NCBI RefSeq assembly: GCF_003334255.1
Contig: NZ_QOWU01000119.1
Origin: Escherichia coli
GTDB lineage: Bacteria; Pseudomonadota; Gammaproteobacteria; Enterobacterales; Enterobacteriaceae
Length of the DNA: 3,540 nucleotides
Reading direction: 5' to 3' (one strand)
The translations under genes were made by a program, and so were the position numbers. The notes below the pieces were generated by a model. It ran no database searches. It was not told where the DNA came from and saw only the letters and a program-made list of their open reading frames with translations. This document shows positions 1 to 3,540 of the stretch, in pieces; within the stretch, counting starts at the first letter, position 1, and each line of letters begins with the position of its first letter.

Positions 1-243
1 CATAAACCGGTGCAGTACTATCCCGGGAAACATCCGTGCGAAAAACCGGCAGAAATGCTGCAGCAGATAATCAGCGCGAGCAGTCGTCCGGGTGACCTGG
101 TTGCAGATTTCTTCATGGGGTCAGGTTCGACAGTCAAAGCAGCGATAGCGCTGGGACGTCGTGCAACTGGCGTTGAGCTGGAGACTGAGCGTTTTGAGCA
201 GACGGTCAGGGAAGTTCAGAATTTAGTCAGTCAGAACGGATGA
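1..243 (+). CDS. DNA methyltransferase (N6-adenine/N4-cytosine type), C-terminal fragment; 5' end lies upstream of the window
   Basis: Frame 1 is open from base 1 to the TGA at 241-243. The translation ...HPCEKPAEMLQQIISASSRPGDLVADFFMGSGSTVKAA... carries the HPxxKP motif followed by the FxGxG AdoMet-binding motif (D-x-F-M-G-S-G-S-T) typical of this methylase family. The ORF-track start at 10 is an internal GTG, not the true start. Confidence 0.8.
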   Translation, partial: HKPVQYYPGKHPCEKPAEMLQQIISASSRPGDLVADFFMGSGSTVKAAIALGRRATGVELETERFEQTVREVQNLVSQNG

Positions 244-283: not shown

Positions 284-359
284 GGCCCTTTAGCTCAGTG
301 GTGAGAGCGAGCGACTCATAATCGCCAGGTCGCTGGTTCAAATCCAGCAAGGGCCACCA
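284..359 (+). tRNA. ileZ: tRNA with anticodon CAU, tRNA-Ile2 (lysidine, AUA-decoding) type; 76 nt with encoded CCA
   Basis: Manual cloverleaf: acceptor GGCCCTT (284-290) pairs with AAGGGCC (349-355), discriminator A356, CCA 357-359. D-arm GCTC/GAGC; anticodon loop CTCATAA with CAT at 317-319; T-loop TTCAAAT. The sequence is close to E. coli ileX as I remember it. The symbol ileZ is by analogy with Stx-phage tRNAs and is tentative; from the anticodon alone an elongator tRNA-Met cannot be excluded. Confidence 0.8.
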
Positions 360-368
360 TATCACATA

Positions 369-445
369 CCGCCATTAGCTCATCGGGATAGAGCGCCAGC
401 CTTCGAAGCTGGCTGCGCGGGGTTCGAGTCCTCGATGGCGGTCCA
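369..445 (+). tRNA. tRNA-Arg, anticodon UCG; 77 nt with encoded CCA
   Basis: Manual cloverleaf: acceptor CCGCCAT (369-375) pairs with ATGGCGG (435-441), discriminator T442, CCA 443-445. U8 present; D-arm GCTC/GAGC with ATCGGGATA loop; anticodon stem CCAGC/GCTGG; loop CTTCGAA with TCG at 403-405; 5-nt variable loop; T-stem CGGGG/CCTCG (one G-U); T-loop TTCGAGT. Confidence 0.75.
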
Positions 446-501
446 TTATCTGCATTATGCGTTGTTGGTTCTGATGAGTGAATCATTGTCTTTTGAGCAA
501 C

Positions 502-523
502 AGGCTATCATATAAGATAGCCT
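502..523. repeat. Perfect 8-bp inverted repeat (hairpin) in the tRNA-to-ORF spacer
   Basis: AGGCTATC (502-509), 6-nt loop atataa, GATAGCCT (516-523). It is not followed by a T-run, so it is not a canonical terminator; it could be an RNA processing structure or a protein-binding site. Confidence 0.5.
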
Positions 524-723
524 CAGACTTCCTTGTTTATTCTCGCCGGATGCTTCGTAGATATTTGCAGGCATCTGTATGCAGGGGTATTATTGCGGCA
601 TATATCATCCGGAAAAATAAAAACTACATGCTGATCCGGAGATGATAGTTACAAGTCCTCCCGGATCCCGCATATTTACTATATTTTATAGATAATTGTT
701 CTTGTTAATATGGAGATGGATAA

Positions 724-1152
724 ATGTATTGCCGTGCTGTACCAGTTCTTGTTTTGATATTAGCCAGTCTGACAACTGGCTGCACAAAAGATGTATCGAC
801 AAATAATTATGATGCTTCTCTGTATCACTCAGATAAATTAATAAAGTCGCAAAATTTGAGCTCATCGGAACGTACCCCTGATGCCAGTGAAGAAATCAGG
901 CAGTATGCCATTCAGGTCAGGAAAGCCATAGAAGAACAGTTAAAGGATGCGAGTAAGTATTCAGGAAAAGAGTGTTCACTGAGAATGTATATGGCCCCGA
1001 ATGGTCTTCTGCTACAGGTTAAAAGAGAAAGCGGTGATCCCGATTTATGTCGTGAAGCGATGAATGCAGTAAAGAATGCTGATATACCATCACCACCGTC
1101 TTCAGGAGTATATAAAGCATTTAGAAATGGCGTGCTGGATTTTAAACTCTGA
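724..1152 (+). CDS. Predicted lipoprotein with a TolA C-terminal (domain III)-like domain; prophage cargo gene
   Basis: ATG 724 to TGA 1150-1152, 142 codons; GGAG at 712-715 is a plausible Shine-Dalgarno. N-terminus MYCRAVPVLVLILASLTTGC has a hydrophobic core and a lipobox-like TTGC with Cys20 and Thr at +2. A Ser/Thr/Asn/Asp-rich linker follows. The C-terminal 85 residues or so (YAIQVRKAIEEQLKDASKYSGKECSLRMYMAPNGLLLQVKRESGDPDLCREAMNAVKNADIPSPPSSGVYKAFRNGVLDFKL) align by eye with remembered E. coli TolA-III (...YAGQIKSAIESKFYDASSYAGKTCTLRIKLAPDGMLLDIKPEGGDPALCQAALAAAKLAKIPKPPSQAVYEVFKNAPLDFKP), including both Cys (codons 973-975 and 1048-1050), the GDP-x-LC motif and the terminal LDFK. GC is about 30-42% here versus more than 50% in the flanking genes. 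Confidence 0.8.
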   Translation: MYCRAVPVLVLILASLTTGCTKDVSTNNYDASLYHSDKLIKSQNLSSSERTPDASEEIRQYAIQVRKAIEEQLKDASKYSGKECSLRMYMAPNGLLLQVKRESGDPDLCREAMNAVKNADIPSPPSSGVYKAFRNGVLDFKL

Positions 1153-1155
1153 CAG

Positions 1156-1175
1156 GGGGAGAAGATTTTCTCCTG
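1156..1175 (+). terminator. Weak stem-loop immediately after the 724-1152 stop codon
   Basis: GGGGAGAA (1156-1163), loop GATT, TTCTCCT (1168-1174). The downstream tract tcctgatgattttgg is only moderately T-rich, so this is a possible weak intrinsic terminator or mRNA-stabilising hairpin. Confidence 0.3.
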
Positions 1176-1328
1176 TCCTGATGATTTTGGGGCGCTGGAA
1201 AGATATTGTGCTGTGAAGTGTTAAATTCCTCACAATTCAGTAAGTTGACAGTTGCCTGTCAGACTGGGCATTTGTTAAAAAAATTTCGCATGGTGAATCC
1301 CCCTGAGCGGAGGGGCGACTGGTGACGG

Positions 1329-1334
1329 TATAAT
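1329..1334 (+). promoter_or_regulatory. Consensus -10 hexamer TATAAT without a convincing -35
   Basis: TATAAT at 1329-1334. No good TTGACA-like hexamer lies 16-18 bp upstream (AGCGGA at 17 bp). The consensus TTGACA at 1245-1250 is too far away to pair with it and has no good -10 of its own. Confidence 0.25.
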
Positions 1335-1340
1335 CTCTGA

Positions 1341-1462
1341 TTATCAAAACGAGAATGACGCGGGTTTAGTGGCACCGGGCTGAACTCACCGGGAGGCACC
1401 CGGCACCATGTTCATGGTGATACAGAAATGCGGCTTCAGCCCCTCTCCGGAGGGGCTTTCTT
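1341..1462 (+). ncRNA. Hypothetical small structured RNA of about 120 nt, running from the candidate -10 to the intrinsic terminator
   Basis: There is no credible ORF in this interval. Consecutive hairpins: CCGGG-aggca-CCCGG (1389-1403), perfect palindrome CACCATG-tt-CATGGTG (1404-1419), and the terminator hairpin at 1438-1457 followed by a T-rich tract. Purely structural inference. Confidence 0.25.
1438..1462 (+). terminator. Rho-independent terminator, + strand
   Basis: AGCCCCTC (1438-1445), loop TCCG, GAGGGGCT (1450-1457): an 8-bp GC-rich stem followed by TTCTTAT. Confidence 0.6.
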
Positions 1463-1468
1463 ATGGAC

Positions 1469-1689: not shown

Positions 1690-3540
1690 ATGACATTTAA
1701 ACACTACGATGTGGTCAGGGCGGCGTCGCCGTCAGACCTTGCGGAGCGACTGACACAAAAACTGAAGGAGGGGTGGCAGCCATTTGGCAGCCCTGTGGCC
1801 ATCACGCCTTATACCCTGATGCAGGCCATTGCGGCGGAAGGTGATGTCACCACACCGGTGGTGGTGCAACCGTCGGGTGATGGTGGCGCTGTTATCAGCA
1901 CCACCAGCGAACCGGAATATTACTTTGTCATTGCGCTGGCCGGGCAGTCCAACTCGATGTCTTTTGGCGAGGGGCTGCCGCTGCCGGAGACATATGACCG
2001 TCCGGACCCGCGTATTAAACAGCTGGCGCGTCGCAGTACGGTGACGCCGGGTGGTGCCGCCTGTAAATATAACGACATCATTCCGGCAGACCACTGTCTG
2101 CATGATGTGCAGGATATGAGTAACCTGAATCATCCTCATGCAGACCTGAGTAAGGGACAGTACGGTTGTGTGGGGCATGCTCTGCATGTTGCCAAAAAGC
2201 TGCTGCCGTTTATGCCTGCGAATGCGGGTATCCTTCTTGTTCCATGTGGCCGTGGCGATTCGGGATTTACTGCGGGGGCCGAGGGGGCGTTTAACGAAGC
2301 GTCGGGAGCGACCGCAGGCTCGTCCCTGTGGGGGGCGGATAAACCGCTGTATCATGACCTGGTCAGCAGAACCCGTGCGGCCCTGAAGAAAAATCCGAAG
2401 AACGTGCTGTTATCAGTGATCTGGATGCAGGGAGAAAAAGATGTCAGTTCGGGGAGACATGCAGAACACAATGCGCTTTTCCTTGCCATGGTAAATCAGT
2501 TCCGTACGGAACTGGCAGATGTGGCAGAGCAGTGTACTGGCGGGACAACGGCCAGCGTCCCGTGGATTTGCGGTGATACCACGTACTACTGGAAGGAAAG
2601 GTATGCAGCGCCGTATGAGGCGGTTTACGGTGGGTATAAAGGCAAAGCTGCGCAGAATATTCACTTTGTGCCGTTGATGACGGATGAGCATGGTGTGAAT
2701 GTGCCGACAAACGAGCCGTCAGAAGATCCGGACATTATCCCGGCGGGATACTATGGCGCTGCGTCACGCACTGCCAGTAACTGGACGTCAGCCGATCGTA
2801 AAACGCACTTCAGTTCATGGGCGCGAAGAGGCCTTGTTTCAGACCGCCTGGCAGGTGCCATTTTGCAGTACGCCGGGCGGACATTATCGTTCCTTACCGG
2901 GCAGAGCGCACCGCAGTCGGGTGGTACAACTCCCGGTGATGATGTCAGTCCGGGGGTACCGGGTGTTGAGAAACCGCAGGATGGCGGTGTTGCTGGTACT
3001 GGTCATGATGAGGCCGTGAGCAGTACCAGGACGGTGGCTGAATATGATGCGAACAGTGGAAATGGTGTATGGACAGAGCAGCAGTGGGGGGCTGCCGGTG
3101 GCAAAGGCACTGTGACTGATGACGGTGGACGGAAAGCGCTACGACTGGAAAAACAGCCCGGTAAACTGACGTCCTGGAAAATGTTCCGTACTGTTGCAGT
3201 GGAGGAGGCAAAAAATCTTCTCAGCAAGGGGGGTGAAATTGCCGTACGGTTCAAAATTCCGGATGGAAGCGAACTGGTGAACGGACAGTTTGTCTTTGGT
3301 CTCTACTGGCCGGTGTCGCAGTGGGCGTCAGGCGCGGCAGCAAACAGTATGCTGGCATCATTCTTCCTTCAGACGGATGCATCAAATCTGAATCTTATGC
3401 ACCACAAGGGCACGTCGAATGCACAACTGGGTACATTTGGTGCGTTTGACCATAACTGGCATACGGTTGTTTTCCGCTTTGCGGGAAATAACAGCGAAAG
3501 AGTCGTTCCGGTGATTGATGGTACAGAGCAGACGGCGTTT
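1690..3540 (+). CDS. nanS-p: Prophage-type sialate (9-O-acetyl-N-acetylneuraminate) O-acetylesterase, NanS-p family; 5' partial, continues past the window end
   Basis: ATG at 1690 with a strong SD. I translated all 617 codons to the window end with no stop. The N-terminus MTFKHYDVVRAASPSDLAERLTQKLKEGWQPFG... matches the DUF1737-type N-terminal domain. It is followed by the SGNH/SASA esterase block YYFVIALAGQSNSMSFGEGLPLPETYDRPDPRIKQLAR with the catalytic GQSN serine motif, as in E. coli NanS (YjhS) and the Stx-phage paralogues. A Gly/Pro/Thr-rich linker (about 2890-3010) and a further C-terminal domain follow. Confidence 0.9.
   Translation, partial: MTFKHYDVVRAASPSDLAERLTQKLKEGWQPFGSPVAITPYTLMQAIAAEGDVTTPVVVQPSGDGGAVISTTSEPEYYFVIALAGQSNSMSFGEGLPLPETYDRPDPRIKQLARRSTVTPGGAACKYNDIIPADHCLHDVQDMSNLNHPHADLSKGQYGCVGHALHVAKKLLPFMPANAGILLVPCGRGDSGFTAGAEGAFNEASGATAGSSLWGADKPLYHDLVSRTRAALKKNPKNVLLSVIWMQGEKDVSSGRHAEHNALFLAMVNQFRTELADVAEQCTGGTTASVPWICGDTTYYWKERYAAPYEAVYGGYKGKAAQNIHFVPLMTDEHGVNVPTNEPSEDPDIIPAGYYGAASRTASNWTSADRKTHFSSWARRGLVSDRLAGAILQYAGRTLSFLTGQSAPQSGGTTPGDDVSPGVPGVEKPQDGGVAGTGHDEAVSSTRTVAEYDANSGNGVWTEQQWGAAGGKGTVTDDGGRKALRLEKQPGKLTSWKMFRTVAVEEAKNLLSKGGEIAVRFKIPDGSELVNGQFVFGLYWPVSQWASGAAANSMLASFFLQTDASNLNLMHHKGTSNAQLGTFGAFDHNWHTVVFRFAGNNSERVVPVIDGTEQTAF

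Follow-up and report, generated by a model that had tools for sequence, protein, structure and literature searches.

Introduction

TolA and TonB both energise outer-membrane processes, and both are hijacked by colicins and phages. The C-terminal domain of Escherichia coli TolA (TolA-III, residues ∼333–421; PDB entries 1S62, 3QDP, 1TOL and 2X9A) has a disulfide bond, a GDPxLC motif and a β-strand, β3, that carries F412, D418, F419 and K420, and it serves as an interaction hub (PMC7391070). Here we analyse a gene at positions 724–1152 of a 3,540-nucleotide stretch of E. coli DNA (contig NZ_QOWU01000119.1 of assembly GCF_003334255.1; 'the window' means the whole of this stretch). The gene lies in a prophage, and its product joins a lipoprotein-type signal peptide to a TolA-III of the same fold, with the disulfide, the GDPxLC motif and the four β3 residues in place. 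We put at about even the chance that this protein is an outer-membrane-tethered, un-energised decoy, which would intercept Tol-dependent colicins and phage proteins.

Several described systems come close to such an arrangement. Cor of lambdoid phages, φ80 and N15, and Llp of T5, are small phage lipoproteins that sit in the outer membrane's inner leaflet and block entry from inside. The protein described here resembles them in being a small phage lipoprotein, and any analogy is functional only: Cor and Llp bind the receptor FhuA, whereas the present protein imitates a periplasmic hub domain of the host and is unrelated to them in sequence or fold. In profile searches Cor and Llp were not among the significant matches of the family, which comprised only TolA and TonB C-terminal domains and PHROG 5772. 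Periplasmic TolA-III itself reportedly made cells colicin-tolerant and leaky in work by Levengood-Freyermuth, Click and Webster in 1993; that domain was artificial, soluble and overproduced, in contrast to a natural, diverged, mobile-element-borne protein that is predicted to be lipid-anchored. In exclusion by the filamentous-phage protein g3p (pIII), the same pair of partners, TolA-III and the g3p N1 domain (g3p-N1), is used to block import: periplasmic g3p-N1 sequesters TolA, giving resistance to colicin A and phage (PMC10424213). Our protein would be the mirror image of this system, the element supplying an extra receptor domain where g3p supplies a ligand that saturates the host receptor. 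Compared with E. coli TolA, finally, the phage protein has neither domain I nor domain II, is uncoupled from TolQ–TolR and the proton motive force, is predicted to be lipid-anchored in the outer rather than the inner membrane, is encoded by a prophage and has K368 replaced.

Public databases already contain this sequence, and with it the domain, the gene and the prophage location. What appears to be undescribed is the lipoprotein plus TolA-III layout, the status of the gene as cargo of the stx slot, the associated genes for TonB C-terminal domains (TonB-CTD), the plasmid operon and any function. In the full-text literature, which leaves most subscription journals outside coverage, we found neither a functional study of a prophage TolA-III lipoprotein nor a characterisation of the plasmid TolA-III and TonB-CTD copies. 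A genome paper has speculated on a prophage 'TolA' in Cronobacter (PMC2833190). A paper on enterohaemorrhagic E. coli linking a ciprofloxacin-induced CP-933O gene to 'TolA' was dropped, as its table gives a tail fibre protein.

Results

A lipoprotein carrying TolA's C-terminal domain

The open reading frame (ORF) starts with ATG and has 142 codons plus a stop, exactly as an earlier note on this DNA, made from its letters alone, had claimed. Its DNA is 100% identical to the gene of WP_000271631.1 in E. coli G1/2. The 142-residue product divides as follows (AF2, AlphaFold2; pLDDT, its per-residue confidence score):

724–1152, plus strand: complete ORF for the lipoprotein-TolA-III protein (ORF listing of the window; relatives)
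724–783, plus strand: lipoprotein signal peptide, residues 1–20, with lipobox L-T-T-G-C, the Cys20 codon at 781–783, Thr at +2 and Lys at +3 (sequence, PROSITE-like rule, relatives)
784–879, plus strand: linker, residues 21–52, predicted to be disordered (AF2 pLDDT 41–56)
880–1149, plus strand: TolA domain III, residues 53–142, with the C84/C109 pair, GDPDLC and the C-terminal β3 strand FRNGVLDFK (profile, PDB, AF2, Foldseek)

The claim that the protein ends in a TolA C-terminal domain, complete with both cysteines, GDP-x-LC and the terminal LDFK, was upheld by profile, sequence and structure comparisons. Pfam PF06519 matches residues 52–140 (E 8.2e-23; model positions 7–96 of 96), and phmmer against PDB sequences gave E 1.6e-25 to E. 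coli TolA-III (1S62, 3QDP, 2X9A and 1TOL). Residues 54–141 align without gaps with TolA 333–420 at ∼52% identity, a TolA residue number being the query number plus 279; C84 and C109 correspond to TolA C363 and C388, GDPDLC to GDPALC, and the terminal LDFK to LDFK. In an AF2 model built with 56 family sequences, pLDDT exceeds 95 at residues 53–142 and is ∼40–56 at residues 1–52. The top Foldseek matches are exclusively TolA-III (for 2x9a_B, a target-normalised TM of 0.94 and a root-mean-square deviation of 0.6 Å over 87 residues), with TonB C-terminal domains as the distant next matches. Residues 52–141 are clearly a true TolA domain III.

The protein is not TolA, however, but a TolA-C-terminal-domain lipoprotein. 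The earlier note could not tell whether the gene was already annotated; a record does exist ('tolA: cell envelope integrity protein TolA' according to PGAP, and 'TolA protein' in RAST for the copy in phage mEp460_ev081), but the name is misleading, and PHROGs places the protein in phrog_5772, a family of unknown function. That the product is TolA proper, a spare or alternative Tol–Pal component as the databases have it, is a reading to which we give next to no weight. Besides the PGAP name, it can call on the TIGR02794 score of 75.9 bits against a cut-off of 59.45, yet profile positions 266–361 of 362 alone are matched; NF007065, at 103 bits, stays below its cut-off of 213 and is matched only at positions 297–386 of 387. 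The two profiles thus see only their last ∼90–95 positions; on its C-terminal domain alone the protein passes the TIGR02794 cut-off, hence the PGAP name. Domain I, the transmembrane anchor to TolQ–TolR, is lacking, the N-terminus being a lipoprotein signal peptide instead; so is the helical Ala/Lys/Glu-rich domain II, with just 32 disordered residues between Cys20 and the domain; and the gene lies in a prophage late region rather than in the tol–pal cluster. Without domains I and II the protein cannot be energised by TolQ–TolR; it cannot act as TolA. Full TolA identity was ruled out on the absence of these domains and on the prophage location.

The same misnaming extends to relatives. In a Rac-like prophage, PGAP annotates L003:7115–7375 as a tolA pseudogene, 'incomplete, missing N-terminus', whereas the actual ORF (6947–7375) is intact, with 142 residues and a lipobox of its own; the flag is an artefact of comparison with full-length TolA. 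Thousands of records name this 142-residue lipoprotein TolA or flag intact copies as pseudogenes, and we suggest the name 'TolA C-terminal domain lipoprotein'.

Predicted anchoring in the outer membrane

The N-terminus (MYCRAVPVLVLILASLTTG followed by C) has a single basic residue, a hydrophobic core and L-T-T-G-C with Cys at position 20. Parsed as MYCR-AVPVLVLILAS-LTTG-C, it satisfies a self-coded lipobox rule modelled on PROSITE PS51257, as do 46 of the 56 aligned family sequences, an alignment in which one entry is the TolA-III fragment of the host, lacking an N-terminus. Cys20 is near-invariant among relatives. This rule and the conservation of the lipobox bear out the lipoprotein-type signal peptide, with Cys20 and Thr at +2, that had been read from the sequence. 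Asp at +2 is the inner-membrane retention signal under the rule that governs Lol sorting; none of the 46 rule-positive relatives has it, and the window protein has Thr. The absence of Asp at +2 points, via the established +2 rule, to outer-membrane sorting by Lol, and the product is predicted to be lipid-anchored at the outer membrane.

The 32-residue linker between Cys20 and the domain is disordered in the AF2 model and has no counterpart in TolA. It had been described as low-complexity; it is disordered, yet not of low complexity. Its SSSERT motif is kept among close relatives, which share the pattern VSTN..D...Y....Q..SSSERT.D.S, a degree of conservation that exceeds expectation for a mere spacer.

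The predicted ligand-binding surface

In TolA-III, β3 (F412–K420) is the edge to which g3p-N1 adds a strand, and colicin N (ColN) is placed at the site of TolB (PMC4339652; PMC7391070); the β3 substitutions D418P and K420P give a delta-Tol phenotype (PMC4339652). The strand reads FRNGVLDFK in the window protein and FKNAPLDFK in TolA, with F412, D418, F419 and K420 identical, and most mini-lipoproteins of the family share FxNxxLDF(K/R). In helix α1, Y340 and A347 are likewise near-invariant in the family. The dissociation constant of TolA-III is ∼1 μM for ColN and g3p as against ∼40 μM for TolB (PMC4339652), from which it follows that a modest amount of decoy could block invaders while disturbing Tol–Pal little.

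A putative TonB counterpart and plasmid operons

The same prophage in E. coli G1/2 encodes a second lipoprotein of 108 residues just after the lysis genes (L001:19711–20037; N-terminus MKRNLPLIILLSSLVMG followed by C), the rest of which is almost wholly a TonB C-terminal domain (PDB E 4e-16). Among 5426 complete E. coli genomes, 1616 have a homologue of this lipoprotein-TonB-CTD. The family goes under 'Rz-like spanin' in PHROG 1267, a name that seems doubtful and looks like a guess from position; the protein could be the Ton-pathway counterpart of the TolA-III lipoprotein.

TolA-III mini-proteins are also encoded by 729–752 PLSDB plasmids, mostly from Klebsiella. The two ColRNAI bacteriocin plasmids inspected (10–12 kb) each encode a lipoprotein that begins with MRLIPFILLALCSPLLLTA followed by C and ends in LDFRP. 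In both, its gene shares a 4-bp overlap with a gene for a signal-peptide TonB-CTD protein, and the pair is divergent from genes for a colicin-like tRNase bacteriocin, its immunity protein and a lysis protein. On K. pneumoniae ColRNAI plasmid NZ_CP043360.1 (L077:3101–3834, minus strand; also L078) the operon consists of a 123-residue TolA-III lipoprotein and a 121-residue TonB-CTD protein. The TonB-like partner is found on 398 plasmids, of which 363 are mobilizable and most are 10–12 kb Klebsiella plasmids. In each of the 11 plasmid rows listed, its neighbour is a gene labelled tolA or TolA C-terminal domain. About 370–400 ColRNAI bacteriocin plasmids have the operon. Copies on ColRNAI and IncF plasmids have the same layout of lipobox, short linker and TolA-III as the prophage protein, end in LDFRP or LDFRL and are also labelled 'tolA'. 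They differ from it in being only ∼34–37% identical and, on Col plasmids, in their translational coupling to a secreted TonB-CTD. In CloDF13 the corresponding slot holds proteins K and L (L079:3813–4728), to which tblastn gave no match with the TolA-III/TonB-CTD operon; they were ruled out as its homologues, and with unrelated proteins in its place the slot seems to be one where the cargo of such bacteriocin plasmids varies.

A copy is found on conjugative plasmids of the F type as well. On the IncFIA/IncFII plasmid pOXA926_130002 of K. pneumoniae, which has an F-type mating-pair system, a 144-residue lipoprotein-TolA-III gene adjoins hha (L075:5836–6270). On another plasmid a TolA-III match lies beside psiA, the gene for plasmid SOS inhibition protein A.

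The repeated, independent pairing of TolA-III with TonB-CTD, in a prophage and in a bacteriocin-plasmid operon, is the strongest argument that these proteins block import. What TolA and TonB have in common is confined to energising outer-membrane processes and being hijacked by colicins and phages, and an envelope without TonB function is not weakened. Further support for import-blocking comes from the orientation of the plasmid operon, divergent from the bacteriocin, immunity and lysis operon, and from the copies on plasmids with an F-type mating-pair system, whose pili serve Ff-type phages as receptors. The diverged paralogues that lie in tandem in Rac-like prophages and in phage mEp460, described below, point the same way. 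Together, the conserved β3 groove and the TonB-CTD pairing lend indirect support to the proposed decoy, or to titration of TolA-III ligands, and make it more plausible.

Selection and distribution

Relatives of the protein are ∼140 residues long and have a start codon and a lipobox of their own; the gene is not a piece of a longer one. Pairwise ratios of nonsynonymous to synonymous substitution rates (dN/dS), taken among three variants of ∼67–73% amino-acid identity to the window protein, are 0.25–0.28 in the domain, and the linker gives higher values; judged by these ratios, the domain of the lipoprotein is under purifying selection. Of 5426 complete E. coli genomes, 897 have a homologue, often together with a second, tandem paralogue, and 894 of the 897 matches span at least 80% of the gene; homologues also occur in 61 IMG/VR viral contigs, all close relatives.

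The earlier note had raised the prospect of a pseudogene fragment, and intact relatives with lipoboxes of their own, together with the dN/dS of the domain, answer it. A functionless, decaying piece of host tolA captured by a phage is in our judgement scarcely credible. Some copies carry the PGAP flag 'incomplete, missing N-terminus' and some database members are frameshifted, as that reading would have it, but the flagged copies are intact 142-residue ORFs with a lipobox, the domain is constrained, the gene is found over at least 80% of its length in nearly all of the genomes counted above, and ∼52% identity to host TolA-III means that it is no recent capture. Decay and TolA proper together take up only a very small share of the probability, and a modest share is reserved for functions other than those considered here.

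By identity band the commonest class comprises 764 genomes at ∼80% nucleotide identity. Its gene lies directly 5′ of the holin gene in a Rac-like prophage in both genomes inspected, one of these two copies being truncated by an IS66 insertion, and phage mEp460 has it in that place too. At all three loci inspected a second lipoprotein-TolA-III paralogue (131 residues, ∼25% identical) follows the first in tandem; it belongs to PHROG 5772 and matches TolA-III in the PDB at E 5e-9. The 131-residue paralogue was seen just upstream of the holin gene at L003:7526–7921 (Rac-like prophage) and L002:6580–6975 (phage mEp460_ev081).

The family is wider than these phages. An exhaustive HMMER search gave 303 matches at the level of 50% clusters; among the best 150, 72 are short (100–190 residues), and at least 46 of those 72 have a lipobox. 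Named members come from Serratia, Kosakonia and other Enterobacteriaceae, under generic TolA labels or as 'colicin import membrane protein'. One 135-residue lipoprotein-TolA-III, at L010:7001–7408 of a 93.6-kb metagenome contig, has a CLC channel, an osmoprotectant ABC transporter and nitrate reductase as neighbours; with this chromosomal, non-phage member the family is not confined to mobile elements. Such members raise the question of whether the protein, neither decoy nor aid to lysis, modulates the envelope of the lysogen, for example by tuning Pal mobilisation, the coupling of CpoB to PBP1B or vesiculation in favour of stress tolerance, colonisation or virulence, which we hold to be distinctly improbable. 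Such a role would parallel one that the chromosomal mini-TolA-III lipoproteins of other Enterobacterales may have as native regulators. Diverse chromosomal members without phage links, those of Kosakonia and Serratia, the size of the family with its many short lipoproteins (at least 46 of 72 short representatives) and the known character of TolA-III as an interaction hub are what one would expect of a modulator; the strong link to prophages and to bacteriocin and conjugative plasmids, like the pairing with TonB-CTD, favours functions in conflict instead.

The prophage locus

The DNA of the window is lambdoid-prophage sequence, from the late region. E. coli G1/2, its nearest complete genome, is 97.7% identical over the window (100% over the ORF), and has the gene order Q, a small hypothetical gene, DNA methyltransferase, CAU tRNA, tRNA-Arg, the TolA-III gene, the SASA/nanS-p esterase, holin/lysozyme/Rz-type genes and terminase/head genes. 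Apart from the gene itself, the window contains:

1–243, plus strand: 3′ end of a phage DNA methyltransferase gene, downstream of antiterminator Q (ORF listing, related genome)
284–359, plus strand: phage tRNA with a CAU anticodon (Met according to ARAGORN, Ile according to PGAP in related genomes)
369–445, plus strand: tRNA-Arg(UCG) (tRNA calls)
506–1195, ends approximate, no strand: inserted low-GC cargo (moron-like) module of ∼690 bp (phi296 empty slot, GC drop)
687–696, plus strand: −10-like element TATAGATAAT, kept in three upstream regions that are otherwise divergent
712–715, plus strand: Shine–Dalgarno sequence GGAG, 8 nt 5′ of the ATG (sequence)
1151–1177, plus strand: 12-bp GC-rich hairpin over the stop codon, then a weak T-run (ΔG −21.5 kcal/mol, z −2.07)
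1259–1468, plus strand: prophage small RNA (sRNA) STnc100 (RF02076), full-length match (Rfam 165.6 bits, gathering score 47)
1690–3540, plus strand: 5′ part of a nanS-p-type SASA carbohydrate esterase gene that extends past the end of the window (ORF, related genome)

In Stx2a phages the genes run Q, (methylase), stx, nanS-p, S; mitomycin C raises their nanS-p by 1–2.4 logs (PMC10462455). By this order the lipoprotein-TolA-III gene sits in the stx slot, and the match of its position to that of stxAB, proposed in the earlier note, agrees with both the prophage gene order and the published one. The setting between tRNAs and nanS-p likewise stands for the locus in the window, though not as a general rule, given the place of the commonest variant next to the holin gene in Rac-like prophages.

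An empty version of the slot, collinear apart from the missing module, is seen in the stx-less Traversvirus vB_EcoP_phi296, where three tRNAs are followed within ∼75 bp by STnc100-like sequence and NanS. At window positions 459–505 (plus strand) a third phage tRNA, which is tRNA-Arg TCT in phi296, survives as a decayed remnant that received no ARAGORN call; in the junction alignment homology with phi296 returns at ∼1196. The remnant and this return place the cargo module at roughly 506–1195, and the 3′ half of the third tRNA appears to have been replaced by it. The GC content is 0.37–0.44 inside the module and 0.5–0.6 in the flanks. Insertion between genes that are adjacent in a related phage, with deviant composition, is the trait of a moron, and the gene is, judging from this arrangement, horizontally acquired moron-like cargo of a lambdoid prophage.

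Within the module, the conserved element TATAGATAAT makes a weak promoter of the gene's own possible, although no good −35 was found for it and a consensus promoter scan of the region was at chance level. The hairpin at 1151–1177 is terminator-like and marks the 3′ end of the cargo module. We presume that the CAU tRNA is an Ile2 tRNA with a lysidine modification, as is ileZ of Stx phages. The STnc100 match lies between the TolA-III gene and nanS-p, and a 2026 preprint ties STnc100 to PasD sRNAs of Stx-type phages; terminator-like hairpins occur near its 3′ end at 1438–1457 (plus strand) and at 1496–1475 (minus strand), the latter outside the match.

Discussion

The function that we favour, at about even odds, is that of an un-energised decoy, which would work as follows. 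A flexible linker of ∼32 residues would present the disulfide-bonded TolA-III to the periplasm just under the outer membrane, where the β3/α1 groove would capture the translocation domains of group A colicins, pilot proteins of the filamentous-phage g3p type and perhaps other Tol-dependent invaders. Ligands would be captured where they emerge from the outer membrane, and their import would be dead-ended because no force is transduced. The TonB-CTD protein of the same prophage, or of the plasmid operon, would have the same role against Ton-dependent colicins and phages. Expression would probably be late, by Q-dependent read-through like that of stx and nanS-p, and possibly also at a low level in lysogens from the weak promoter.

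The setting among late genes also bears on the main rival function, that of a Tol–Pal antagonist serving release. Here TolA-III made late would bind the TolB N-terminus in competition with host TolA, which we think unlikely; to much the same degree unlikely is the proposed outcome, in which TolB–Pal persists, the cell wall receives no Pal and the outer membrane starts to leak or to hypervesiculate, giving faster release of phage or bacteriocin, or vesicle decoys. In every phage context inspected the gene is in the Q-dependent late region just 5′ of holin/endolysin, and stx and nanS-p of this slot are induced along with lysis (PMC10462455); on Col plasmids, moreover, it lies beside the bacteriocin/lysis-protein operon. 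The TolB-binding β3 strand is conserved, and tol mutants leak and hypervesiculate (PMC7391070). In an AF2 model of a single-chain fusion of TolB(22–36), a Gly/Ser linker and the domain, run without a control, TolB 24–28 (RIVID) docks as a β-strand at moderate confidence while the linker is disordered; the model is consistent with strand augmentation, and we give it little weight. The affinity of TolA for TolB, however, is 40–200 μM (PMC7391070, PMC4339652), so an antagonist would need high levels of the decoy domain. Nor would antagonism explain the co-occurring TonB-CTD, since loss of TonB leaves the envelope stable. On Col plasmids the operon and the bacteriocin/immunity/lysis genes are transcribed divergently, the one IncF copy and the one chromosomal copy inspected are away from lysis genes, and spanins already handle the outer membrane in these phages. 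The decoy and antagonist functions are mutually compatible.

Several points count against interception of invaders by a decoy. Evidence for a promoter of its own is weak, TATAGATAAT being conserved but lacking a −35 and the scan being at chance, and if the gene is expressed late only, lysogens would be poorly protected. Its position adjoining lysis cassettes fits a release function too, and the AF2 fusion suggests that the domain may be able to take up the TolB N-terminus, making interference with Tol–Pal conceivable. Some family members are chromosomal and not phage-linked, which hints at a housekeeping role, and no PADLOC defence model matches the protein. The colicin A site on β2, finally, is altered: K368 is replaced by Tyr here and by His or Asn in variants, D377 by Gln and P380 by Arg, with L375, L376, K379 and K396 retained. 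K368 is the cation–π partner of colicin A Tyr58, the one colicin A aromatic shown to be essential for complex formation (PMC3365938). With K368 replaced, protection against colicin A specifically is doubtful, and on this point the reading of the earlier note does not hold.

A broader version of the decoy proposal, that mobile elements of Enterobacteriaceae (lambdoid prophages, Col-type and F-type plasmids) carry decoys made of the head domains of the two envelope energy transducers, TolA-III and TonB-CTD, as a widespread and unrecognised import-blocking defence, has in our estimate a chance somewhat below even. The gene in the window would then be the prophage TolA-III member of a class whose copies are periplasmic or outer-membrane-tethered, an assignment that is likewise a little short of evenly balanced.

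If the decoy is real, the protein would be a natural dominant-negative probe for force transduction by Tol–Pal. Roughly a sixth of complete E. coli genomes would then encode protection that is broad and independent of the receptor, directed at group A colicins and at phages that depend on Tol; clinical plasmids of Klebsiella, hundreds of them, would be protective too, and the TonB-CTD proteins would be the Ton counterpart. Such protection would bear on bacteriocin and phage therapeutics, on competition in the gut and on the persistence of prophages and Col plasmids.

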